Shown here one piece after another: positions 2,125 to 43,674 of a stretch of 64,000 bases of DNA (within the stretch, counting starts at the first letter, position 1; each line of letters opens with the position of its first letter). The stretch lies in the NCBI GenBank assembly GCA_963707865.1, contig OY970175.1:300352-364351 (forward strand), given 5' to 3'. Below the pieces are notes generated by a model that worked only from the letters and a program-made list of their open reading frames with translations, did not search any database and was not told where the DNA came from. Origin of the DNA: an uncultured bacterium. GTDB lineage: Bacteria > Patescibacteriota > Minisyncoccia > UBA6257 > 2-01-FULL-56-20. The position numbers and the translations under genes were made by a program.

Positions 2125-3258
2125 ATGAAAACCGAAAGTTTCCGTGTAGTGGTGGCGGGCGGGGGAAGCGGGGGACACGTATACCCCACGATCGCGGTGA
2201 TTGAAGCGCTCAAAAAGCAGTGTGCCGAGCTCGGAGTGCCGCTTGAGGTGATCCGCGTGGGTCCGCGGGATGGCTACGAACCGCTCTTCGCCGACTGCGG
2301 TGTCGCGCTTTCACCGATTGTGGCCGGCAAGGTCCGCCGATATGCATCATTAGCGAACTTCGTTGATATCCCCAAATTCTTTATTGGATTCCTCCACGCG
2401 CTTTTCAAGCTGTACTTCCTTATGCCCGACGTTATTTTTTCAAAAGGCGGTACGGGTGCCTTGCCCGTTGTCGCCGCTGGCTGGTTTTATCGCATCCCCA
2501 TCGCTATCCACGAATCCGACGCGAAGCCGGGCCTCACCAACCTTTTTTCCGCGCGTTTCGCGAGAAGAGTGTTTGTGAGCTTCGCAAGCGCGGCCGTTTA
2601 CTTCAATCTGCAGAAAACGCAAGTGACGGGAACCCCGATCCGGGAGGGACTCCTCGTAGGAAGAACCGCGAAAGAACCTACAAAAGAAACACTTGGTTTT
2701 GATTCCCAAAGTTCGCTTACGCTCATTCTTGGCGGCTCACAGGGCTCGCAACGGATCAATCAATTCATTCTTGAGAGCATTGTCGCGCTCGTAAAGGAAA
2801 CCCAGGTGCTCCATCAAACCGGCGCGGCGAATTTGCCGGAGGTTGCGCGACTCTCCCGCGCCGCGCTCATTGATGAATCGTTCCAAAACCGCTACAAGGC
2901 CGTGGGATATTTCGAGAAAGACCTTTCGCTCGCGCTTGCCGCCGCCGACCTCGTGGTCGCACGCGCTGGCAGCAACACTATCGCCGAAGTCGCCTCGTTC
3001 GGCATCCCCATGATCCTTATCCCGCTTTCCGATGCGGCCAACGACCACCAGAAACTGAACGCTTACGAATTCGCAAAAAACGGCGGCGCCGTCGTGATTG
3101 AGGAAGCCAATTTATTTGAAGGCATCTTTCTCGGGCAACTAAAGGCGATTCTTGGCAACGAGGAGTTGCGCGCCAAGATGAGTGCCGCCGCAAGCCAATT
3201 CTTCCTCCCCGATGCTGCGGGAAAAATTGTGGAGGAGCTGCTCCGCCTTGCGATATAG
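2125..3258 (+). CDS. murG: UDP-N-acetylglucosamine--N-acetylmuramyl-(pentapeptide) pyrophosphoryl-undecaprenol N-acetylglucosamine transferase
   Basis: 377 aa. N-terminal G-rich loop VVVAGGGSGGHVYPTIAV typical of MurG. GT-B C-terminal domain. Follows ftsW. Confidence 0.9.
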   Translation: MKTESFRVVVAGGGSGGHVYPTIAVIEALKKQCAELGVPLEVIRVGPRDGYEPLFADCGVALSPIVAGKVRRYASLANFVDIPKFFIGFLHALFKLYFLMPDVIFSKGGTGALPVVAAGWFYRIPIAIHESDAKPGLTNLFSARFARRVFVSFASAAVYFNLQKTQVTGTPIREGLLVGRTAKEPTKETLGFDSQSSLTLILGGSQGSQRINQFILESIVALVKETQVLHQTGAANLPEVARLSRAALIDESFQNRYKAVGYFEKDLSLALAAADLVVARAGSNTIAEVASFGIPMILIPLSDAANDHQKLNAYEFAKNGGAVVIEEANLFEGIFLGQLKAILGNEELRAKMSAAASQFFLPDAAGKIVEELLRLAI

Positions 3259-3274
3259 AAGCGCAAAAAAAACA

Positions 3275-5026
3275 ATGAACGCTGAAATCAAAGCTTGCCA
3301 AAATTGCAAAAAACAGTTCGCGATTGAGCAGGATGATTTTGCGTTTTATGAAAAGATAAAGGTTCCGCCGCCCACGTGGTGCACAGAGTGCCGCAGAGAG
3401 CGCCTTTTAACGTGGCGGAACGAACGAACCCTTTATAGAAGGAAATGTGCTGCGACTAATAAAGATATCATTTCCGTATTCCGCCCCGACAGCCCGATGA
3501 CCATCTACGACCGGGACTATTGGTGGAGTGACAGCTGGAATCCAGAAGACTTCGGACGGGAATACGACTTCTCCAAGCCGTTTTTTTCGCAGTTCAGAAG
3601 CCTGATGGAAAAAGCTCCCATGCCTGCAGTGTTCAACTCACAATGCTTGAACAGTGAATATTGTAACCACATAACCAAATCTAAAAACTGTTATCTTGTT
3701 TTTGCCACGTGGCATTCCGAGAATCTGATGTACTCGGCGCAGTGCAGCGATACCACCGACTCGCTGGACATCCTTACTGGTACCGAGTGCGAGCTTTGTT
3801 ATGACGACATAAAAGGCATAAAGCTGTACCGCGTCTTTTATTCCGATAACTGCGAAGGCTGCAGTGATTGCGCCTTTTTATATGACTGCAAGGGTTGCCA
3901 GTACTGCTTTGGCTGCACCAATCTCCGCAACAAATCATATTACTTTTTCAACAAATCCCTTGGCAAAGAAGCGTATTTGGAAAAGATGAAGGAATTCAAC
4001 CTCGGCAACCGCGAGGGCGTAAGGCGAGCCAAGCAAAGGTTTGAAACAGAAAAGCTCCGCGCGATCAGACGCCCAGCGTTCCTTGTCAATTCAACCAACT
4101 CAACGGGAGATTATCTCGAGCGGTGCGAATCGTGTGTGCATTGCTTCGGCATTCGGGCGGGGGCAAAAAACTGCAAGAATTGTTACAACGGCGGCTATAA
4201 TCTTTTTGATTCGCGGGATTCGTACGGTCCGGGAGTCAATGCCGAACTTCTCTACGAAAGCATAGACACCGGGGTCGAGGGTTCTTCGCTTTACTTTGAC
4301 ATTGTGGTATACGGCGGTATGAACGTGGAATATAGCTACAATTGCCATGGTGCAAGCAATTGTTTCGGCTGCGTTGGTTTACGAAATAAACAATACTGCA
4401 TATTAAACAAGCAATACTCGAAAGATGCGTATGAGATCTTGATAACCAAGATAAAGCAACACATGAGCGACGTGCCCTATATCGATAAGAAGGGCAGAAA
4501 ATACTCCTACGGTGAATTCTTCCCGGTTGAGCTATCTCCATTCGCTTTCAATGAAACCATATCGTACGAGTTTTTCCCCTATTCGCGCGGCGAACTTCGA
4601 TCACGCGGGTACGAATATCTCGAACCGGCGAAAACAAGCTATAAAGTGACTGTTGATGTCGGCAATGTCCCGGTCGACTTGAGAGACGTAGACAAAAAAG
4701 TAACGGATGAAGTAATCGCATGCGAGCACGCGGGAACTTGTCGCGATAATTGCAGTGGCGCATTTCGCATAACCCCGCAGGAACTGCAGCTTTATGAAAA
4801 ACTGCATATATGCCTGCCGGTGCTCTGTCCGAACTGTCGCCATATGGAGCGCGTGCGCCGTACTAACCCATTTTTCCTTTGGCACCGTGTGTGTCAATGT
4901 TCCGGGGGTTCTGCGCCGCATTTTCATGGCACAAACCGTTGCCCTAATGAATTTGAAACCTCCTATGCCCCTGACCGATCAGAGATCGTTTACTGCGAGC
5001 AGTGCTATCAGGCAGAAGTGGCTTAA
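3275..5026 (+). CDS. Cys-rich multi-zinc-ribbon repeat protein (unknown function)
   Basis: ORF track gives 3182..5026, but the first ATG not overlapping murG is 3275 (MNAEIKACQNCKK...). The N- and C-termini carry homologous CxxC-x(17-20)-CxxC modules. The centre has repeated C..CFGC..LRNK.Y...NK modules. About 50 Cys in total. Confidence 0.6.
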   Translation: MNAEIKACQNCKKQFAIEQDDFAFYEKIKVPPPTWCTECRRERLLTWRNERTLYRRKCAATNKDIISVFRPDSPMTIYDRDYWWSDSWNPEDFGREYDFSKPFFSQFRSLMEKAPMPAVFNSQCLNSEYCNHITKSKNCYLVFATWHSENLMYSAQCSDTTDSLDILTGTECELCYDDIKGIKLYRVFYSDNCEGCSDCAFLYDCKGCQYCFGCTNLRNKSYYFFNKSLGKEAYLEKMKEFNLGNREGVRRAKQRFETEKLRAIRRPAFLVNSTNSTGDYLERCESCVHCFGIRAGAKNCKNCYNGGYNLFDSRDSYGPGVNAELLYESIDTGVEGSSLYFDIVVYGGMNVEYSYNCHGASNCFGCVGLRNKQYCILNKQYSKDAYEILITKIKQHMSDVPYIDKKGRKYSYGEFFPVELSPFAFNETISYEFFPYSRGELRSRGYEYLEPAKTSYKVTVDVGNVPVDLRDVDKKVTDEVIACEHAGTCRDNCSGAFRITPQELQLYEKLHICLPVLCPNCRHMERVRRTNPFFLWHRVCQCSGGSAPHFHGTNRCPNEFETSYAPDRSEIVYCEQCYQAEVA

Positions 5027-6782: not shown

Positions 6783-8084
6783 ATGAAGACGCTTTTTTAT
6801 TTTTACGCGCAAATCGTCGCGGCGGCCGTCACGGGATGTGCAATCGTAGCAATCACCGCGAGTGCCCAAAGCGTTTCACCAACCTCCACAACTACGCAGA
6901 TGACGGCGACCACCCTGCAGGCGCAGATCCAGCAAAAACAGCAGCAATTGAATGGCGTGAACGCCCAACTTGCATCCACCACCGCGAACCTGAAGCAGAT
7001 ACAATCGCAGCGCGTGACGCTCCAGCAGCAGCTCAACCTGATCAACGGCAACGTCAGTTCGTTGAATTTTGGCATCCAAGCCGATACGCTGACCTCGCAA
7101 CAGCTCACGTTAGAAATTGAACAGCTCCAGAGTGACATGAAGGACATTCAGGCATCCGTGGCGACGAAACAAAATGCCATCGCGAGCATCTTGCAAGAAG
7201 TTGAGCGGAATGATTCCGAAAATGGAAACCTTTTCGCGTTATTCCTCAAAAGCGGGACGCTTGCGGACGGCGTCATGGAAGCGAATTCACTTTTGAATCT
7301 CCGCGCGGAGCTTGCGACCGACATTGATGCGCTTAAGGAACTCAACACGGAATATGCTACGAAGATTGAGGACAGTACGGCGAAATCAGGGCAAGTTACG
7401 GTACACCAAGAAGACCTTCAGAACAAGAAAGTAATCGTCCAAGATGAACAATCGCAAAAGCAAACTCTCTTGAAATCAACCAAGAATCAAGAAAGCGTTT
7501 TCCAAGAGCAGATGACGGCGCTTCAAAAAGAACAGGCGGCGATCGCAAGCGACATGGAGGCGATCGCCGCGGTGCTGCGCACAAAGATTGACCCCTCCAC
7601 ACTGCCCGCACTCGCGCCCGGGGTACTCCTCATACCGATCCATGGCGACGATGAGTCGGACATCACGCAAGGATACGGCGCGACCGCATTTGCCAAAAAC
7701 GGCTACGCGGGGCACTGGCACAACGGCATTGATCTTGCCGCATCCATCGGAACGCCGGTCCTCGCGGCCGAGGATGGCGTTGTGGCCGCCACCGGCAACC
7801 AGGACGCGTACTGTCCAAAAGGGGCATACGGAAAATTCGTAGTCATCAATCACACGAACAATCTCACCACACTCTACGGCCATTTCTCGCGGATCATCGT
7901 CGCAAAGGGCGACACGGTAAAGAGGGGACAGGTAATCGGCTATTCCGGCCAGACGGGCTATGCCACCGGCCCGCACCTGCACTTCACGGTTTATGCTCAG
8001 GCGACGTTCTATATGGGACAATCAAAGGTGTGCGGGCCAATGCCCTACGGCGGTGATCTGAACCCTATTGGATATTTATTCTAA
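6783..8084 (+). CDS. M23-family metallopeptidase with N-terminal Gln-rich coiled coil
   Basis: Signal-peptide-like N-terminus. Long Q/L-rich coiled coil. C-terminal HWHNGIDLA ... YGKFVVINH ... GYSGQTGYATGPHLHFTVY (LytM/M23 HxxxD and HxH motifs). Confidence 0.85.
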   Translation: MKTLFYFYAQIVAAAVTGCAIVAITASAQSVSPTSTTTQMTATTLQAQIQQKQQQLNGVNAQLASTTANLKQIQSQRVTLQQQLNLINGNVSSLNFGIQADTLTSQQLTLEIEQLQSDMKDIQASVATKQNAIASILQEVERNDSENGNLFALFLKSGTLADGVMEANSLLNLRAELATDIDALKELNTEYATKIEDSTAKSGQVTVHQEDLQNKKVIVQDEQSQKQTLLKSTKNQESVFQEQMTALQKEQAAIASDMEAIAAVLRTKIDPSTLPALAPGVLLIPIHGDDESDITQGYGATAFAKNGYAGHWHNGIDLAASIGTPVLAAEDGVVAATGNQDAYCPKGAYGKFVVINHTNNLTTLYGHFSRIIVAKGDTVKRGQVIGYSGQTGYATGPHLHFTVYAQATFYMGQSKVCGPMPYGGDLNPIGYLF

Positions 8085-8102
8085 AAATGGCATAATGAAA
8101 CC

Positions 8103-8540
8103 ATGTTGTGGCGGCGAAGAGCGCGTGCCCTTGTGATAATGGCAGTTATCGCCGTTTGTGTTGCCACGGCGACTTCCTTAAAAACCGCCCAAACCGTGGG
8201 AGCGTATTCGCTTCAAGGAACTCCCCAAAGCCAGTCGGGCTTTACGACGGTTGGTCTGCCGTCCTTGAACTTTAGCAGTTTGCTCTCACCGCTCCAGAAT
8301 TTCCTGAACAGCATCGGCTCGGTGGGGAAAGGAGCAATGCCGCAGCTCAATCTGTCCACGCCACAAACACAACTCCTCACGACAGGCACGCTAAACGTTT
8401 TTCAGCAATTTGATGACTGGTTTTATGGCACCGTCGGGTTTCATATTTCCGAATTCTTCGTCGCCATTCTGAACGTTCTTCTTTGGGTACTCGGCATTGT
8501 GGAGAGCATAGTCAGGTGGCTCCTGGGCCTCGTCCGGTAG
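8103..8540 (+). CDS. hypothetical secreted/membrane protein
   Basis: 145 aa. N-terminal hydrophobic signal and C-terminal TM helix. No recognisable domain. Confidence 0.45.
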   Translation: MLWRRRARALVIMAVIAVCVATATSLKTAQTVGAYSLQGTPQSQSGFTTVGLPSLNFSSLLSPLQNFLNSIGSVGKGAMPQLNLSTPQTQLLTTGTLNVFQQFDDWFYGTVGFHISEFFVAILNVLLWVLGIVESIVRWLLGLVR

Positions 8541-8582
8541 GAGTTGTTTTAATCAAAACTTTAGGACTTTTTAATATCTTTT

Positions 8583-9122
8583 TTGTATAGTGGCAACATG
8601 GAAATGTTGCCGGGGGATTACATTGCCGGATTTGTGGATGGCGAAGGGTGTTTCGCGCTGAAGTTCATCCGATCCGTGCGCCATGACAGGAAAAACAAAC
8701 CAGTTTATTTTTATTGGGATGTGGAATTTATTATTGCTTTGCGAATAGACGACAAAGAAATTTTGGAAAAAATTCGGACATCGCTGGAGTGTGGGCGAAT
8801 AAGCCTCAGCAAAAGTGGTGAAGCGAGGTTTTACGTGAACGCAATCAATGATTTGAAAGATAAACTAGTACCATTTTTTGAAAAATATTCCTTACGTGCC
8901 AAAAAACAGAAGGATTTTTTATTATGGAAAGAGGCATTAATGATTCTGTATAAAAATCAGCAGATCAATATTTTGAGGAGAAAACAACAGAAAGGATTTT
9001 TAAAAATTAATATGAATGAAACCGATCGGCGTCGGTTACGCGAAATTCACGAGGAGATGAAACCCATCAAGAGCAAGAGAAAAGCTGACTGGAAGTGGTT
9101 AAATGCAGAAAGCAAAAGCTAG
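8583..9122 (+). CDS. LAGLIDADG-family homing endonuclease (single-motif, free-standing)
   Basis: Motif LPGDYIAGFVDGEGCFALKF matches the LAGLIDADG consensus. 179 aa is typical of homodimeric enzymes. The gene and its flanks are markedly AT-rich relative to neighbours. Confidence 0.75.
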   Translation: MYSGNMEMLPGDYIAGFVDGEGCFALKFIRSVRHDRKNKPVYFYWDVEFIIALRIDDKEILEKIRTSLECGRISLSKSGEARFYVNAINDLKDKLVPFFEKYSLRAKKQKDFLLWKEALMILYKNQQINILRRKQQKGFLKINMNETDRRRLREIHEEMKPIKSKRKADWKWLNAESKS

Positions 9123-9226
9123 CTTAGTTTGTTTATCTGTCTGGAAAGGTATATTGTGCGACATATAGTATCCGGCCGTAGGTATCCTTCCCTGCTAGAC
9201 CGGCATTACTATAAGATAAAGGAGTT

Positions 9227-9844
9227 ATGGCAGCGAAAGTCATTGCGGGAGCGTTTTTAATATTTTGCACCTTCACAGTTCTTACCGTGATAGGAAATTT
9301 TTTTACCTCCGGTGGTTTGGTGCGTGCGTATCAGTCCGGCAGCAGTGCAAACCAACTTACTTCAATTGATTTCAGCTTATTTGATAAAAACGGCACTGGC
9401 AGAAGTTATATTACGCAGGGATATGGCCATACGTCGTTTTCATATCAATACCCGGGCGGATGGCACAACGGCATTGATATCGCAGCCACCTATGGGGCGC
9501 CGATCTACTCCCCCAGCGAAGGGACGGTGCTCACAACCGGTAATCAGGATAACTACTGTCCGCGGCGCGGCTTTGGCAAATATGTGGCGCTAGACGATAC
9601 GGCAAATCACCTTGTACTCTGGTTTGCGCACCTCGGCACAATCTCCGTCTCGGCCGGTAGCATGATCAAAAAAGGTACTTTGATCGGCACCGTGGGCGCA
9701 ACCGGCTTTGAAACGGGCACCCACCTTCACTTCTCCGTTTTTGACGAGAATGGATTTTCCATGACCTCGCGCAACGGCTGCGGCCCGGATCCGACCGGTC
9801 ATGATCTCGATCCCCTTTCATATCTAGGAACTACCTACAAGTAG
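9227..9844 (+). CDS. M23-family metallopeptidase (short paralog)
   Basis: Signal peptide. GWHNGIDIAATYGAPIYSP ... TGNQDNYCPRRGFGKYVAL ... GTHLHFSVF. Shares the TGNQD.YCP block with the 6783..8084 protein. Confidence 0.85.
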   Translation: MAAKVIAGAFLIFCTFTVLTVIGNFFTSGGLVRAYQSGSSANQLTSIDFSLFDKNGTGRSYITQGYGHTSFSYQYPGGWHNGIDIAATYGAPIYSPSEGTVLTTGNQDNYCPRRGFGKYVALDDTANHLVLWFAHLGTISVSAGSMIKKGTLIGTVGATGFETGTHLHFSVFDENGFSMTSRNGCGPDPTGHDLDPLSYLGTTYK

Positions 9845-9858
9845 AGACAAACAAAATA

Positions 9859-11274
9859 ATGGCACACTTGTCGCAAAAGAAGGTTCACTTCATAGGCATC
9901 GGAGGTATCGGCATGAGTGCCTTGGCTCGCTATTTTCTGTCCGAAAAATGGGCTGTTTCGGGGTCGGATGCGGCAAGAAGCCAGATTACCAATTCCCTCG
10001 TAAAAGACGGCATAAACGTCAAAATTGGGCATAAAAAGGGCCATTTACCCCGCGGTGTAGGCCTTGTAGTCATAAATTTGGCGATACCAACAAACAATCC
10101 GGAGCTACGCGAAGCGCGGCGGCAAGGCATCCGGGTACTTACCTACCCGGAGGCAGTGGGTGAACTCACTGAGCAGTACAAGACGATCGCCATAGCCGGC
10201 GCGCATGGCAAGAGTACGACGACGGCGCTTGCGGCACTTACCCTCATGTGTGGCGGGCTGGATCCCACCGTCATTGTGGGAACGAACCTCAAAGAGTTCG
10301 GTGGCGGCAAAAACGGCCGCAACTTCCGCCGCGGGCGCGGCAAATATCTCGTCCTTGAGGCCGATGAGTTCGGGAACGCGTTCTCGCACTACTCCCCTTT
10401 CATGGCCATCATTACGAACATTGACCGCGAACACCTGGATACGCATAAGAATCTCGCCGGCATCAAAAAAGCGTTCCTCGGTTTTACGAAAAACATAGCG
10501 AGCAGCGGCACGCTCATTTTAAACCGCGACAATAAAAATCTGCTTTCGCTTCGTGCGGAAATTTCGGCGATTGAAAAAAGGAAGGGCGTGAAGGTAATTT
10601 GGTACTCGGTCCGCGGCGGCGGAAAGTCCCCACACGACAGAATGCCCATGAACAAGATTGCGAACAAAATCCGAAGCGTGATCAAAATCCCCGGCGAGCA
10701 CAATATCTCAAACGCGGCCGCCGTCTATGAACTCGGCCTAGCACTCAAAATCCCCGAAAAAAAGATCCTCGCGGCGATCAGTGCGTATCGCGGCGCCTGG
10801 CGCCGGATGGAATATCGCGGCCAATTCAAGGACGTCAGCGGCAAAGACGCCCGGCGCGGCGCGCCCGTCTATGACGATTATGCCCATCACCCGACGGAGA
10901 TCAAAGCGACCCTCCAAGCGTTCCATGAGAAATATCCGCAAAAGAAGACTCTCTGTATTTTCCAACCCCATCAGGCAAAACGCTTGGCCGCGCTCTTTAA
11001 GGAATTTATGACCTGCTTCGCCGACGCGGACAAAACTCTTCTCCTCCCTATTTATAAGGTGGCCGGCCGCGATCAAAGGCCTAGCCGCTTTGATTCGGCG
11101 GCTCTCGCCCGCGCAATTCAAAAACGCGAACCGCAAAAACCATTTTTCTATCTCGCGAACCCGCGCAATTTGAAAAAGGCAATCCGCACGCTTGCCACTC
11201 CCCTCTCCCAATACGTCATCATCATGATGGGCGCGGGCGACATTGTGAACCTTACCGATTCCCTGTTATCATAG
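9859..11274 (+). CDS. murC: UDP-N-acetylmuramate--L-alanine ligase
   Basis: HFIGIGGIGMSALA N-terminal Rossmann motif. IAIAGAHGKSTTTA P-loop of Mur ligases. 471 aa. Confidence 0.9.
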   Translation: MAHLSQKKVHFIGIGGIGMSALARYFLSEKWAVSGSDAARSQITNSLVKDGINVKIGHKKGHLPRGVGLVVINLAIPTNNPELREARRQGIRVLTYPEAVGELTEQYKTIAIAGAHGKSTTTALAALTLMCGGLDPTVIVGTNLKEFGGGKNGRNFRRGRGKYLVLEADEFGNAFSHYSPFMAIITNIDREHLDTHKNLAGIKKAFLGFTKNIASSGTLILNRDNKNLLSLRAEISAIEKRKGVKVIWYSVRGGGKSPHDRMPMNKIANKIRSVIKIPGEHNISNAAAVYELGLALKIPEKKILAAISAYRGAWRRMEYRGQFKDVSGKDARRGAPVYDDYAHHPTEIKATLQAFHEKYPQKKTLCIFQPHQAKRLAALFKEFMTCFADADKTLLLPIYKVAGRDQRPSRFDSAALARAIQKREPQKPFFYLANPRNLKKAIRTLATPLSQYVIIMMGAGDIVNLTDSLLS

Positions 11275-11278
11275 TGCC

Positions 11279-12061
11279 ATGTTCGGCGATTATAAGGACG
11301 CGACCGATTTCAAGGAAAAATCCGGCTACACGATTGACGGTGTTTGGTATCCGCGCGTGACAAAGATCGTGACGATTAAATCCAAGCCCGCGCTTTATCG
11401 CTATTACGGCGAGGCCGCGAGCTACAAAGCGGCGCAGGATATTACTGAACAGTCGGCAAAAGAAGGAACAATGATCCACGAAGCAGTAGAGGGGTTATTA
11501 CTTGGCAAAAATCCGGAGATCCCAGCCGAGATTGCACCTGCGGTGAAATCGTTCCAGGAATTCTCCGCCGCAAACAATATAGAGGTGTCTCCCGAGCTTG
11601 TGGAACGCCGCATCGTAAACTACGACCATCGCTACGCAGGCACGGTGGATGCAATCGCCTTGATCGGCGGACGGCTTGGCGTTCTGGACATTAAGACCTC
11701 GCAGGCCATTTATCGCGATTATAGTTTGCAAACCTCGGCATACATGGACGCCCTAAAGACACAGTTCAGAAATCTGCAGACGCGGTGGATCCTGCGCATT
11801 GACCAGATCCAAAAGTGCATGCGGTGCGGCGCGGTGCGGCGCGTAAAGGGCGGCCGCGAAAAAGTGCGCGTTGATTGGAAAAACGGCAACGCTCACGCAG
11901 CAGCCATGAGGGCCTGCGAGCACGATTGGGGTCCGCTTATGGGCGAAATAGAGCTCAAGGAATTTCCTTATTGGCAGAACGACTTTGAGGCGTTCCTTGG
12001 CGCCAAAAAACTTTGGGAGTGGGAAAACGACGGGTGGCTTAAGAGGGTTGGCTATCTATGA
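11279..12061 (+). CDS. PD-(D/E)XK nuclease, RecB/Cas4-like family
   Basis: Motifs in order: EGTMIHEAVE (motif I), GTVDAI (D), LDIKTS (D/E-x-K), QTSAY (QxxxY). C-terminal Cys cluster CMRC...CEH. Confidence 0.6.
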   Translation: MFGDYKDATDFKEKSGYTIDGVWYPRVTKIVTIKSKPALYRYYGEAASYKAAQDITEQSAKEGTMIHEAVEGLLLGKNPEIPAEIAPAVKSFQEFSAANNIEVSPELVERRIVNYDHRYAGTVDAIALIGGRLGVLDIKTSQAIYRDYSLQTSAYMDALKTQFRNLQTRWILRIDQIQKCMRCGAVRRVKGGREKVRVDWKNGNAHAAAMRACEHDWGPLMGEIELKEFPYWQNDFEAFLGAKKLWEWENDGWLKRVGYL

Positions 12062-12813
12062 TCGAGCCGGGACCGACAATAAAATTGATAACGCTTAACG
12101 TTGAAATGAATCGTCACTGGGATCGCATTGTTCCTTTTCTTGAGCGCGAATCACCGGACGTATTGTGCCTGCAGGAACTTTTTGATCGGGACATAAAAAT
12201 GCTTGCCAATCGCTTCGGATACCAGTACGTATATATCCCCACAACCAAAATAGCATACGACACAGGAACTGCCGTCCTTACCCGGCTACCACTAAAAGAT
12301 GTAAACAGTGCCTATTACTACAAGCCGGCGCCGGAAATCCAAACGTTCCGAGGTGCCACATTGGTTGAACTGCGAGCAACCGTCCACGAAGGAATCGTAT
12401 GGGGCGCAATTGAGAAGGACGGAGCGCGGTTCACCGTTGCCTCCACCCATTTCACATGGACGCCGGATGGCAAACCGAACGAAAACCAAGATCGCGATAT
12501 TGTATCGCTATTCAAAATCCTAGATGGCATTCCTGCACTAATCCTGTGTGGCGATCTCAATGCCCCCCGCGGAGACAACCGGATTTACCGCTCACTTATC
12601 GAGCGGTTCAAAGATAATATTCCGGCCGATATTGAAACCACCCTTGATATGGATTTGCGCAAAGAAACGGATCCCGTTGAACGTGCGCGGCTTAGGACGT
12701 ACGTCGTTGATTACATTTTTTCAACGCCCGAATATGCCGTAAGTGATGTCCGGCGCGTATGCGGCTTGAGCGATCATTGCGCTATCGTCGCAAATGTATC
12801 CCGCCAGGCGTGA
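12058..12813 (+). CDS. endonuclease/exonuclease/phosphatase (EEP) family protein
   Basis: ITLNVEMN...PDVLCLQEL N-terminal EEP motif and C-terminal SDHCAIV motif. The start overlaps the upstream stop (ATGA). Confidence 0.7.
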   Translation: MIEPGPTIKLITLNVEMNRHWDRIVPFLERESPDVLCLQELFDRDIKMLANRFGYQYVYIPTTKIAYDTGTAVLTRLPLKDVNSAYYYKPAPEIQTFRGATLVELRATVHEGIVWGAIEKDGARFTVASTHFTWTPDGKPNENQDRDIVSLFKILDGIPALILCGDLNAPRGDNRIYRSLIERFKDNIPADIETTLDMDLRKETDPVERARLRTYVVDYIFSTPEYAVSDVRRVCGLSDHCAIVANVSRQA

Positions 12814-35172: not shown

Positions 35173-35862
35173 ATGGTTATGAAAACAGCACTAAAGGAAA
35201 GGGCTATCGCATTCCGCAGGGATGGATGGTCGTATCGGGAAATCATGCATGAGGTTCCCGTTGCCAAATCAACTATCGGGCTTTGGTTGCGCTCGGTCGG
35301 ATTATCTATCAGACAAAAGCAGAGGCTCACCGAGAAAAGATTAGCTGCGGTAAGGCGAGGTGCCGAAGCAAAACATCAACAGCGGGTTACCATCACACGG
35401 AAAATAATAGCGGCAGCGAAGGAGGATATTGGCGCGATCAGTAAACGTGAACTTTGCCTTATCGGCACCATGCTTTATTGGGCTGAAGGGTCAAAACAAA
35501 AAGATCACGATCCCAGCTGCAGAGTGATGTTCACAAATACTGATCCAGATATGATATGCATTTTCTTGCGATGGCTAAAAGAAATCTGTGATAAAGATCT
35601 ATGCGATACCACTCTAGAAATATACATCCACGGGTTGCAACGGCAGAGAACAGCAGAAATCATTGATTTTTGGTCAGCAATTATCAAATGTGATCCATCT
35701 GTTTTTCAGCATATTTACTACAAGAAAGGAAATCCGAAAACATTGAGAAAAAATGTCGGGAAATCATATCACGGAACTCTGAGGATCAACGTCAAGTCGA
35801 GTACATCACTCAACCGCAAAATTGCGGGATGGACGCAGGGCGTGGTAGACTATTTCCGATAA
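35173..35862 (+). CDS. hypothetical HTH-domain protein, possibly LAGLIDADG-like; low GC
   Basis: N-terminal HTH-like region ([22 protein letters not shown]). [13 protein letters not shown] is weakly LAGLIDADG-like. GC is clearly lower than the flanks. Ends 1 nt before the tRNA-Gln. Confidence 0.45.
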
Positions 35863-35863
35863 T

Positions 35864-35936
35864 TGCGGGGTGGTGCAATCGGTAACACGTCGGTCTTTGG
35901 CACCGAAGTTCCAGGTTCGAGCCCTGGCCCCGCAGC
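35864..35936 (+). tRNA. tRNA-Gln (anticodon UUG)
   Basis: Hand-folded cloverleaf. Acceptor TGCGGGG/CCCCGCA with U1:A72 and G73. Anticodon stem TCGGT/ACCGA, loop CTTTGGC (U33, TTG). T arm CCAGG-TTCGAGC-CCTGG. 3' CC encoded. Confidence 0.8.
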
Positions 35937-42204: not shown

Positions 42205-42400
42205 GAAACGAAAAATCCCGCAACGGGCGGGACGACAGGCGACAATGCAGCACCTCCATCGTCCCTTAGCTCGAGGAACCTGGTTTATTTTTATTTATCA
42301 AGAATGGTAATCGGACTTTCCGCGACTCCGCGGATCACCGTAGCGGCACTGTGCGGGACTCCCACCCGCTTCCCCATTCCTGATTAACAACCTTTCAAAT
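42205..42400 (-). ncRNA. cobalamin (B12) riboswitch-like leader with intrinsic-terminator expression platform
   Basis: Minus-strand RNA: ...AAUGGGGAAGCGGGUGGGAGUCCCGCACAGUGCCGCUACGGUGAUCC... matches the conserved GGGAA..GGUG..UCC..AC.G.CCGC.AC.GUGA core. A hairpin UCCCGCCCGUUGCGGGAUUUUU ends 8 nt before the start codon. Confidence 0.6.
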
Positions 42401-42458: not shown

Positions 42459-43184
42459 GTGGATAACTCCGCGACCATCCCACGAACACAAGTAAACGAC
42501 GATTTGATAGAATTAAGGGCAATGAAAGACCCAACAAAATTACTCGGAACAACCGAGAAAATTATCAACAAAATCATGGAACATTGGAAAGGTAATAAGT
42601 GGTTTTTTGTTGGTGATATGGTTCTAGTTCTTGGCGTGTCCGTTGTTGGATTTTTTGCGATATTCGGAACTGTATTTTATGGACTAAATCAGTATCGTAA
42701 TTGGAAAAGTCTTTCTTCTGGTGTGGTTTTTACAACTTCAACAACAGATATTTTTACTCCTATAAACTCGCCCCTAAGTGTTAGCGGGACAGATAATGCC
42801 GTAGCGGTTGGTCAAGGTGCACGGGCGACAGTTCAGAAATATCCTCCGCCCACATTTGAATATTATGTAGTTGGGGTTGTCGTTGCTAATCCATTCAAGG
42901 GAATATATGACGAAAGTTTTGACGGAGTATATACAAAAATCTTTGATTGGAAAACTACGTATTTAAATGGACTCCCCCCTCCTACCGGAAAAATAGTTCC
43001 CGTATCATCCCTGTCGTGTTCGCCAACGTATCCCGATATGGTTTCCAATCAACCCGATCGGTTTAAAACTCAGAGCCTCATTGATCTTGGAAATAATAAG
43101 GTCGTAAATATAGAAGAAGTCACTTGCACGTCAACTTCGCCGATAATTGATGATGGGAAATTGTTTAAATATCAAGATACTTGA
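42459..43184 (+). CDS. hypothetical membrane-anchored protein (low-GC island)
   Basis: 241 aa. Single TM near residue 50-70. AT-rich codon usage unlike neighbours. No recognisable domain. Confidence 0.45.
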   Translation: MDNSATIPRTQVNDDLIELRAMKDPTKLLGTTEKIINKIMEHWKGNKWFFVGDMVLVLGVSVVGFFAIFGTVFYGLNQYRNWKSLSSGVVFTTSTTDIFTPINSPLSVSGTDNAVAVGQGARATVQKYPPPTFEYYVVGVVVANPFKGIYDESFDGVYTKIFDWKTTYLNGLPPPTGKIVPVSSLSCSPTYPDMVSNQPDRFKTQSLIDLGNNKVVNIEEVTCTSTSPIIDDGKLFKYQDT

Positions 43185-43242: not shown

Positions 43243-43674
43243 ATGTCCGCAAGCCATTTCCACGACCTTTTGAGAACGAGAGGAAAAGAGTATGAATCTT
43301 GGACTCCTATGTATTGCTCTGCATTAAGAGATTATATTCACTTTACAAAAAGAGGGTTTAATCACCTACGGTTTAATATTGATAATACTCCCAGAAATCC
43401 GAAGGAAGTAATGTATAAGATAGGTCTTTTACCCCTTGTGCGTCCCGCGATTTATAAAGCTGTAAGAGTTGAATATGAGAAACGTCTCGCTCCCGTTGGA
43501 GGCACAAGGAAAAAAGTTTTAAAGGAGATGGAGTACTGGGCGATTACAGAAGTAGTCGGAAAACAAAATGTTAAGATAAAAGTCGTTGTGAGAAAAATTG
43601 GCAAAGGACAGATACACTTTTGGAGCATTATGAAGCTCGCCGAAAATCAAAACACCCCAAAAGGGGTGTCCTGA
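43243..43674 (+). CDS. hypothetical protein (low-GC island)
   Basis: 143 aa, basic. No recognisable domain. Hairpin ACACCCC-AAAA-GGGGTGT at the 3' end. Confidence 0.4.
   Translation: MSASHFHDLLRTRGKEYESWTPMYCSALRDYIHFTKRGFNHLRFNIDNTPRNPKEVMYKIGLLPLVRPAIYKAVRVEYEKRLAPVGGTRKKVLKEMEYWAITEVVGKQNVKIKVVVRKIGKGQIHFWSIMKLAENQNTPKGVS

Follow-up and report, generated by a model that had tools for sequence, protein, structure and literature searches.

What keeps a LAGLIDADG homing-endonuclease gene standing free among the protein-coding genes of a bacterial chromosome, at one address in many genomes and missing from most of the relatives sampled there? The question is raised by a stretch of 64,000 nucleotides (hereafter the window) from an uncultured bacterium of the Patescibacteriota (GTDB lineage Minisyncoccia; UBA6257; 2-01-FULL-56-20), which spans positions 300,352 to 364,351 of the forward strand of contig OY970175.1 in the GenBank assembly GCA_963707865.1. 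The endonuclease gene lies between a gene for a 145-aa membrane protein and a palindromic DNA element, in a region that also holds two M23 peptidase genes, murC, and a gene for a PD-(D/E)XK-like protein (Table 1). Across genomes, one fixed site is either occupied or empty, and some copies of the gene are degenerate; intact copies are under purifying selection and retain the catalytic residues, the base composition looks foreign, and the linkage to the palindrome is constant. We favor, with a probability of roughly 0.6, the reading that the gene is a free-standing selfish homing-endonuclease cassette, made of a promoter region and an open reading frame (ORF), beside a conserved palindrome.

The endonuclease gene and its occupancy in related genomes

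Synteny in three loci at first suggested that the gene is a conserved, domesticated core gene. Therefore, we sampled relatives independently of the endonuclease, by anchoring on the PD-(D/E)XK gene, and obtained 30 non-redundant loci with both upstream and downstream anchors. The endonuclease gene was intact in 4 of these loci and N-terminally truncated in 1. The other 25 were empty, with no remnants of the gene found in them, which led us to reject the core-gene reading as the main explanation. Both of the closest relatives, L084 (74% in GltX and 86% in the PD-(D/E)XK protein) and L112, are empty, and L112 has the gene order of the window, including the 145-aa ORF. The loci bearing the cassette are scattered on the host tree, and each of them has empty sisters. 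Comparison with orthologous loci lacking the insert places the insertion site in the spacer that runs from the 145-aa ORF, after its stop codon, to the palindrome. L112 and L084 have just 10-17 unconserved nucleotides from the stop of the homolog of this ORF to the element, and in the window the same spacer (8541 to around 9132) is filled by the endonuclease gene together with the flank on its 5' side. An independent comparison, of L003 with L115, gave the same arrangement. We found no convincing target-site duplication or terminal repeats flanking the insert in the window.

Several copies of the gene are decayed, by frameshifts (L026, L041), by truncation of the C-terminus (L027), or by truncation of the N-terminus (L028/L148). 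Among the intact copies, the proportion of nonsynonymous differences (pN) is 0.14-0.24, synonymous sites are saturated, and the ratio of nonsynonymous to synonymous rates (dN/dS) is about 0.08-0.14, values that indicate strong purifying selection. The gene in the window has a guanine-cytosine (GC) content of 0.387, the lowest among the 55 ORFs of the window (z=-3.3), and its GC content at third codon positions (GC3) is 0.447, compared with 0.62-0.66 in the neighboring genes. Along the sequence, the GC content is 0.34-0.37 in 8700-9200 and around 0.52 on either side. The same tendency was found in all 23 loci tested, where the GC3 of the gene is lower than that of its flanks (mean difference of -0.18), with a slope of only 0.4 against the GC3 of the host. 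In L003, for example, the endonuclease gene has a GC3 of 0.39 and the flanks 0.68-0.82. A GC3 that stays low in this way points to transfer or to selection as its probable cause. Taken together, patchy occupancy, decay, purifying selection, and AT-richness characterize a cassette that is selfish and dispensable, one that is gained, decays, and is lost.

A preliminary description of the locus had reported a 179-aa ORF with a single LAGLIDADG motif (IAGFVDGEGCF) in an AT-rich segment, outside any ribosomal RNA (rRNA) gene, intron, or intein. All of this was confirmed, with a change of the start codon. The ORF list gives the plus-strand frame as 8583-9122, read from a TTG, and the ATG at 8598 is the likelier start, since it is favored by the database protein P0001 and by the N-termini of the family in the alignment. 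The frame has its own start and stop and is separated from the neighboring ORFs by 57 and 104 nt. Elsewhere in the family, a TATAAT is found 6-10 nt ahead of the start codon, and the -10-like hexamer of the window (Table 1) suggests that the transcript could be leaderless; the consensus promoter scan called no full promoter in 8541-8597.

The protein matches the Pfam family LAGLIDADG_1 (PF00961) with E=5.1e-23 and 82.3 bits, for a cut-off of 23.1. This is its only Pfam domain, a single one at residues 14-118 that covers positions 1-101 of the 102 in the profile, and no NCBIfam model matched the protein. Sequence searches of the PDB retrieved halves of I-LtrWI, I-OnuI, I-PanMI, and I-SmaMI (E down to 5e-27), together with the single-domain I-TnaI. 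The AlphaFold2 model, built from an alignment of 25 members (predicted local distance difference test of 80), has an alpha-beta-beta-alpha-beta-beta-alpha core, with helices at 6-16, 50-63, and 83-96 and strands at 17-27, 36-49, 67-70, and 75-80. Searched with Foldseek, it retrieved I-OnuI, I-PanMI, I-LtrI, and I-TnaI at E values of around 1e-10. As a single-domain LAGLIDADG endonuclease, the protein should be a homodimer, and membership of the family would predict sequence-specific double-strand cuts with 4-nt 3' overhangs.

The residues D14, G15, E16, G17, C18, F19, K102, and K103 and a C-terminal KW are invariant in the 25 family members, and the window protein has all of them. From the alignment to I-OnuI-family structures and established knowledge, we take E16 to be the metal-binding acidic residue and K102/K103 to hold the active-site lysine. 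The family also has a conserved C-terminal extension of its own, ending in WKWL. After the motif helix, conservation is highest in the DNA-contacting strands beta1 and beta2 (majority fractions of 0.90 and 0.83, versus 0.46-0.69 elsewhere), which suggests that all members of the family would read one common, conserved target.

Searches for introns were negative. With Rfam at gathering thresholds, the whole window has only one tRNA and one adenosylcobalamin (AdoCbl) riboswitch, both away from the endonuclease gene, and at E<=10 the region 7800-10000 gave no credible match and no intron family. There is hence no group I or group II signal around 8540-9230, and these null results, with the completeness of the flanking genes, effectively exclude that the gene is borne by a group I or group II intron. 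An intein is effectively excluded as well, since the ORF stands alone, begins and ends with codons of its own, and has LAGLIDADG_1 as its sole Pfam domain.

More than 120 database proteins match the window protein at E<1e-51 with 53-67% identity, the latter value being that of the best match. They come from Liptonbacteria, Jorgensenbacteria, Wolfebacteria, Paceibacterota, and related groups, and relatives already bear the name "LAGLIDADG family homing endonuclease" in the sources. An exhaustive search gave 23 clusters (at 50% identity) with E<=1e-30 and 840 with E<=1e-10. In species-representative genomes, members with at least 43% identity have gltX, the long M23 gene, murC, and the PD-(D/E)XK gene as linked genes in nearly every case, despite changes of orientation. 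The family is specific to Paceibacteria, with 43-67% identity and one address, the gltX/M23/murC region. The next-nearest homologs (at most 39% identity) lie elsewhere: each of the 9 examined is either inside a 23S gene or at the 3' end of a 16S gene. LAGLIDADG genes of the candidate phyla radiation (CPR) have been described in rRNA insertions and group I introns, e.g., I-ShaI (PMC11270868). The lineage studied here has left this usual rRNA-intron habitat.

Among the distant LAGLIDADG genes, those of L030, L034, L077 (around 7890-8420), and L032 (7903-8366) are found just downstream of a complete 16S gene and are preceded by weak-to-moderate matches to the Rfam family group-II-D1D4-1 (E from 5e-6 to 0.02), which is odd for LAGLIDADG genes. 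Viral contigs carry only distant LAGLIDADG relatives and no members of the family, and a phage vector is therefore not supported.

The divergence of the endonuclease is comparable to that of host genes. Its mean p-distance is 0.49, as is that of gltX, and Mantel correlations between the endonuclease and host genes are 0.33-0.44, for values of 0.23-0.88 between pairs of host genes. Neighbor-joining trees, which are without support values, show agreement between the two histories (the window and L003 are sisters in both) and also conflicts (L021, L001, L011). Given this parallel with the host genes and the pairing of the window with L003, long vertical descent with repeated loss would cover much of the distribution.

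The palindromic element and its possible relation to dif

The element beside the gene has the consensus ATCTGTCGyAAAA-N6-TTGTGCGACAGAT. Its copies in 45 loci, both occupied and empty, form an ungapped alignment, and the element precedes murC or the short M23 gene (other copies are, for example, at L112 6098-6132, L085 4712-4743, and L135 5836-5867). It is kept almost base for base in genomes whose proteins share only 50-65% identity. The window has a single copy of it in 64 kb, which rules out a general promoter motif. The pairing of its arms (75.6%) is at the level of shuffled sequences (74.2%), there are few compensatory changes, and Rfam gave no match for it at E<=10 over 7800-10000. These results do not support an RNA hairpin or leader, and a DNA-level site is the more likely nature of the palindrome.

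Across the family, the stop codon of the endonuclease gene is 0-20 nt from the left arm of the element or overlaps it. This linkage holds whichever gene stands on the left, be it the 145-aa ORF or a gene for the long M23 peptidase, a zinc-ribbon protein, the short M23 peptidase, or a recombinase. Most occupied loci have a second copy of the element upstream, with a spacing shorter by one base, which serves as the promoter of the gene itself by its sequence (TTGAnT, 17 nt, TATAAT). No such upstream copy is found in the window or in L003. The resident element is itself promoter-like, since the promoter scan reads TGGAAA-16-TATAGT at 9142-9169. L020 has a tandem pair of family genes (7944-8519 and 8678-9202), each followed by a GTCGCACAA half-site. 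The second copy has a degenerate motif (ALVNQDGCF), and the pair may encode a heterodimer or include a decaying duplicate.

The conserved CCTTCCCT box downstream of the palindrome gives an indication on the history of the neighborhood. Where the element precedes murC, this box (CTTCCCT) falls within the first codons of murC. In the window, the positions 9868-9888, also in the first murC codons (TTGTCGCAAAAAAAGGTACAT), resemble the left arm and the center of the element. Both features hint at an insertion of the short M23 gene in between, separating murC from the element.

Given its conservation and linkage, the palindrome is a likely candidate for the target of the endonuclease or for an integration site. 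Its left arm differs between alleles: it is less conserved in occupied loci (9.5 of 13) than in empty ones (10.9 of 13; p=0.003), a difference that is confounded by phylogeny. The core of this arm is TGTCTGG in the window, TGTTACA in L003, and TGTCGTA in empty alleles with identical central hexamers. Substitutions of this kind might confer self-immunity on the occupied alleles, of which they give only a hint.

The element has the layout of dif, the site of the Xer recombinases, with inverted arms of 11 bp, a center of 6 bp, and a spacing that is fixed in the 45 loci. Its right arm is nearly invariant and its left arm variable, also in empty loci; the XerD and XerC arms of dif are likewise unequal in conservation. 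Using dif seed sequences from PMC3025954, we found that the copy of L019 matches the dif of E. coli at 20 of 28 positions and that of L014 matches the dif of B. subtilis at 19 of 28, scores which chance matches also reach. Of the best 26 seed matches in around 3 Mb, 2 fall on copies of the element, which are thus enriched among these matches.

A gene for a Xer-type recombinase is directly upstream of the endonuclease gene in L013, L016 (6980-7975), L017, L018, L020 (7031-7987), and L025. These recombinases have a Phage_integrase domain and a SAM-like N-terminal domain, and the adjacency is found in one clade. L077 (13124-14059) and L060 (5924-6850) have a Xer-type gene beside a TTGTGCGAC half-site, with no endonuclease gene at the spot. 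No Xer gene is present in the 64-kb window, where the GC skew follows the orientation of genes and, at this scale, marks no terminus. Exact copies of the element were also found on two predicted viral contigs of IMG/VR without the genes of the host locus (L212 3234-3260 and L213 2924-2950), where they may be attachment sites of mobile elements. The copy on L212 is near an ORF for an ArdA-like antirestriction protein, around 400 bp from the end of the examined stretch.

It is plausible but unproven that the element is dif or an attachment site. We keep as a tentative proposal, with the odds against it, that the palindrome is dif or an equivalent attachment site on which this LAGLIDADG lineage has specialized, either by homing through cuts in dif regions free of the cassette or by riding in the manner of dif modules and of integrative mobile elements exploiting Xer (IMEX).

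The flanking genes and their variable interval

The features of the locus are listed in Table 1. The endonuclease gene had been described as wedged between two M23 peptidase genes that are both intact. Both genes are intact indeed, each with its Peptidase_M23 match, and they flank the region, but they are not both directly adjacent to the endonuclease gene, because the 145-aa ORF intervenes on the left. Homologs of this ORF, ending in ...WLLGL, are found at the same position in L084, L112, L115, L003, and others. The long M23 gene is syntenic in most related loci. The presence and the placement of the short one vary among relatives: it is downstream of the endonuclease gene in the window and in L003, and upstream of it in L145.

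Table 1. Features of the endonuclease locus in the window (position 1 is the first nucleotide of the 64,000)
Feature	Positions	Strand	Description
Long M23 peptidase gene	6783-8084	+	433 aa, coiled-coil N-terminal part; Peptidase_M23 E=3e-30
Gene for 145-aa predicted membrane protein	8103-8540	+	Left neighbor of the insertion site; no Pfam family
Inserted cassette	8541-9132		Around 590 bp, with the stop of the 145-aa ORF on its left and the palindromic element on its right; absent from empty-site relatives
5' flank of the endonuclease gene	8541-8597	+	-10-like TATAGT at 8586-8591, 6 nt ahead of the ATG
LAGLIDADG_1 endonuclease gene	8598-9122	+	174 aa with one motif; a TTG at 8583 is the alternative start
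32-bp near-palindrome	9135-9166	+	ATCTGTCTGGAAA-GGTATA-TTGTGCGACATAT; 11-6-11 core at 9137-9164
CCTTCCCT box	9186-9193	+	Another conserved block, 25-70 nt past the palindrome; shared by nearly all related loci
Short M23 peptidase gene	9227-9844	+	205 aa; Peptidase_M23 E=1e-23; preceded by the palindromic element
murC	9859-11274	+	Pfam assignment; right-hand anchor of the syntenic block
PD-(D/E)XK-like gene	11279-12061	+	Pfam assignment; right-hand anchor, used for sampling related loci

The possibility had also been raised that the endonuclease promoted duplication or gene conversion at the M23 locus. The data speak against this. The catalytic domains of the two paralogs are only 46% identical, both paralogs coexist without the endonuclease gene in L085, L112, and L160, and each is closer to its orthologs elsewhere (57-66%) than to its neighbor in the window. 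Hence, the duplication is old and unrelated to the endonuclease gene.

The interval from the long M23 gene to murC is a variable cassette region, which contains, depending on the genome, the short M23 gene, genes for zinc-ribbon proteins, a gene for a BNR-repeat protein, or other ORFs. Upstream of it, the window encodes a 614-aa Cys-rich, zinc-ribbon-like protein (3182-5026) that has no Pfam match. One to four homologs of this protein are found in L099, L126, L141, and L159, sometimes within the variable interval. On the other side, the PD-(D/E)XK protein is Cas4-like and Cys-rich, and it is better conserved among relatives than murC (mean column identity of 65%), with 64-86% identity to the window protein. 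Its gene overlaps the start of a gene of the endonuclease/exonuclease/phosphatase family (12058-12813), with which it looks like a conserved nuclease pair. Other AT-rich ORFs without Pfam match are found in the window at 42459-43184, 43243-43674, and 35173-35862 (GC of 0.40-0.44, GC3 of 0.32-0.45). Two of them adjoin the AdoCbl riboswitch, which is on the minus strand at 42251-42400, and the end of the other is next to the tRNA gene at 35864-35935. By their composition, these three ORFs may also be foreign DNA.

Competing explanations and known systems

If the cassette is a selfish element, its target and the act of homing are what we infer. The dimer would recognize the palindrome, or a sequence overlapping its left edge, in chromosomes free of the cassette and would make a double-strand break there, and repair from incoming DNA bearing the cassette would copy it in. 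The insertion and the substitutions would alter the left arm and in this way protect the resident copy. The lineage would persist through repeated rounds in which the cassette invades, is inherited vertically, decays, and is lost cleanly. Several points weigh against this account. The cleavage activity and the target are predictions, and long vertical descent with repeated loss would suffice for much of the pattern, with no need for homing in recent times. A close donor is not known, the best database match being 67% identical, and no family member was found on viral contigs. The conserved arms of the palindrome span 26-32 bp, for around 22 bp in typical sites of LAGLIDADG dimers, and the insertion point is around 25 bp off the center. 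Finally, an apparently intact palindrome adjoins the resident gene, which makes the argument on immunity weak.

The main rival is that the cassette was moved by site-specific recombination at a dif (Xer) or tyrosine-recombinase site, as a dif-module-like or IMEX-like insert between a degenerate and an intact copy of the site, with the LAGLIDADG protein as cargo or selfish guard. We regard it as unlikely. It would account for the 11-6-11 layout and its invariant spacing, for a right arm more conserved than the left as in XerD and XerC arms, for the best matches to dif, and for the bracketing of the gene by two element copies in most occupied loci. It would also give a role to the Xer-type genes next to the endonuclease gene or to half-sites, to the exact copies of the element on IMG/VR contigs, one of them beside an ArdA-like ORF, and to the different cassettes of the adjoining interval. 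However, the window and L003 have no upstream copy, and in other loci these copies resemble ordinary promoters. The similarity to dif is modest and equalled by chance matches, while the 64-kb window has no Xer gene and no terminus marked by GC skew. Recombination also leaves unexplained why the catalytic residues and the DNA-reading strands are so strictly conserved. A domesticated, immobile LAGLIDADG protein, inherited vertically and often lost, that would bind a palindromic promoter as an accessory regulator of the cell-wall genes murC and M23 seems to us decidedly unlikely. Such a regulator would fit the constant address across orders of Paceibacteria, the divergence equal to that of gltX with positive Mantel correlations, and the strong purifying selection. 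A dimeric protein beside a palindromic site that overlaps a promoter-like sequence is moreover the classic layout of a regulator. Yet, of 30 close relatives, 25 have the palindrome and not the gene, which means that the element works without the endonuclease. In addition, pseudogenized copies exist, the catalytic residues are invariant, which is not the case in WhiA, and the AT-richness persists even in hosts with a GC3 of 0.7-0.8.

It is very improbable that the copy in the window is an inactive relic, with an intact frame that has no function and awaits decay. Homing-endonuclease genes are expected to degenerate after fixation, relatives do have decayed copies, and nearby donor or recipient alleles are not known. 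Against this, the window copy has a full-length ORF, every residue that is invariant in the family, and a -10-like element in the usual place. The last candidates, an endonuclease that caused the duplication or gene conversion of the M23 genes and a gene borne by an intron or intein, are effectively excluded. The two M23 genes that flank the region and the variable local gene order speak for the former, but the paralogs are too different and live together without the endonuclease gene. The latter has against it the lack of any group I or group II signal and an ORF that is separate from its neighbors.

If the selfish cassette is the correct reading, it bears on how LAGLIDADG genes are seen in these bacteria. 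In CPR/Patescibacteria they have been discussed as passengers of rRNA insertions. The family described here is an example of a lineage that has moved out of such insertions and persists, free-standing, at one address in many orders of Paceibacteria. With its matched alleles (occupied, decayed, and empty) and a short, highly conserved palindrome as candidate target, it provides a natural experiment that opens homing in uncultivated, DNA-scavenging bacteria to direct tests in vitro. If the palindrome is dif, this would link homing endonucleases to elements that exploit Xer, be the first prediction of dif in the group, tie a homing endonuclease to a single-copy palindrome that every circular chromosome must conserve, and make the adjoining M23-murC interval a Xer-linked hotspot of cassettes. 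For the engineering of meganucleases, a compact homodimer that reads a long and defined palindrome would likewise be of interest.

The protein itself is an ordinary member of LAGLIDADG_1. In the searchable literature, we found no description of a free-standing LAGLIDADG cassette at one address across a bacterial class. Both this single-address habitat in Patescibacteria and the strict linkage to a palindrome that may be dif appear to be undescribed there. The closest systems by host are the LAGLIDADG genes of CPR rRNA genes and group I introns (I-ShaI; PMC11270868), which share the LAGLIDADG_1 domain, the length of around 170-190 aa, the expected homodimer, and the host superphylum. In contrast to them, the family of the window is intergenic among protein-coding genes and has its own promoter-like 5' flank, a WKWL extension, and a palindrome unrelated to rRNA. 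The fold and the catalytic motif are common to the homodimeric, single-motif enzymes I-CreI and I-TnaI (PDB 5gkk) and to the monomeric I-OnuI family. Halves of I-OnuI-family enzymes are the best matches (E of around 1e-27 in sequence and 1e-10 with Foldseek), and I-TnaI is the best single-domain one. Homodimers such as I-CreI read pseudo-palindromic sites, and the gene in the window adjoins a palindrome. These enzymes, however, are encoded by introns and cut at the point of intron insertion in a site of around 22 bp, whereas the cassette, whose activity is predicted, stands beside a candidate site with arms spanning 26-32 bp, and not at the center.

In its habits, the cassette is closer to the Seg and Mob endonucleases of T4-like phages and to the free-standing LAGLIDADG ORFs of organelles, which are likewise intergenic, AT-rich, and patchy, with their own expression signals. 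Like them, it is located between conserved genes whose homology could serve copying by repair. The difference is that those systems belong to phages or organelles and that the phage ones are mostly GIY-YIG or HNH enzymes, while here a LAGLIDADG gene is in a bacterial chromosome, with a stable address throughout a class of bacteria. WhiA and the yeast HO endonuclease also have the LAGLIDADG fold at a conserved chromosomal position near envelope or division genes, as has this family. WhiA has two degenerate domains and a helix-turn-helix, and lacks the catalytic acidic residues. The window protein, in contrast, keeps its catalytic residues, and its gene decays and is dispensable in most relatives. 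Finally, IMEX and dif modules (CTX-phi, the pdif modules of Acinetobacter) resemble the locus in that a small cassette is found at an 11-6-11 palindrome, often with a second degenerate copy. The likeness extends to the variable neighboring cassettes, to the Xer-type gene of some lineages, and to the occurrence of the site on putative mobile contigs. To our knowledge, and from a search of the literature, known IMEX and dif modules carry no LAGLIDADG endonuclease. They also differ from the copy in the window in that the latter has one flanking site only, a palindrome that is a putative dif.

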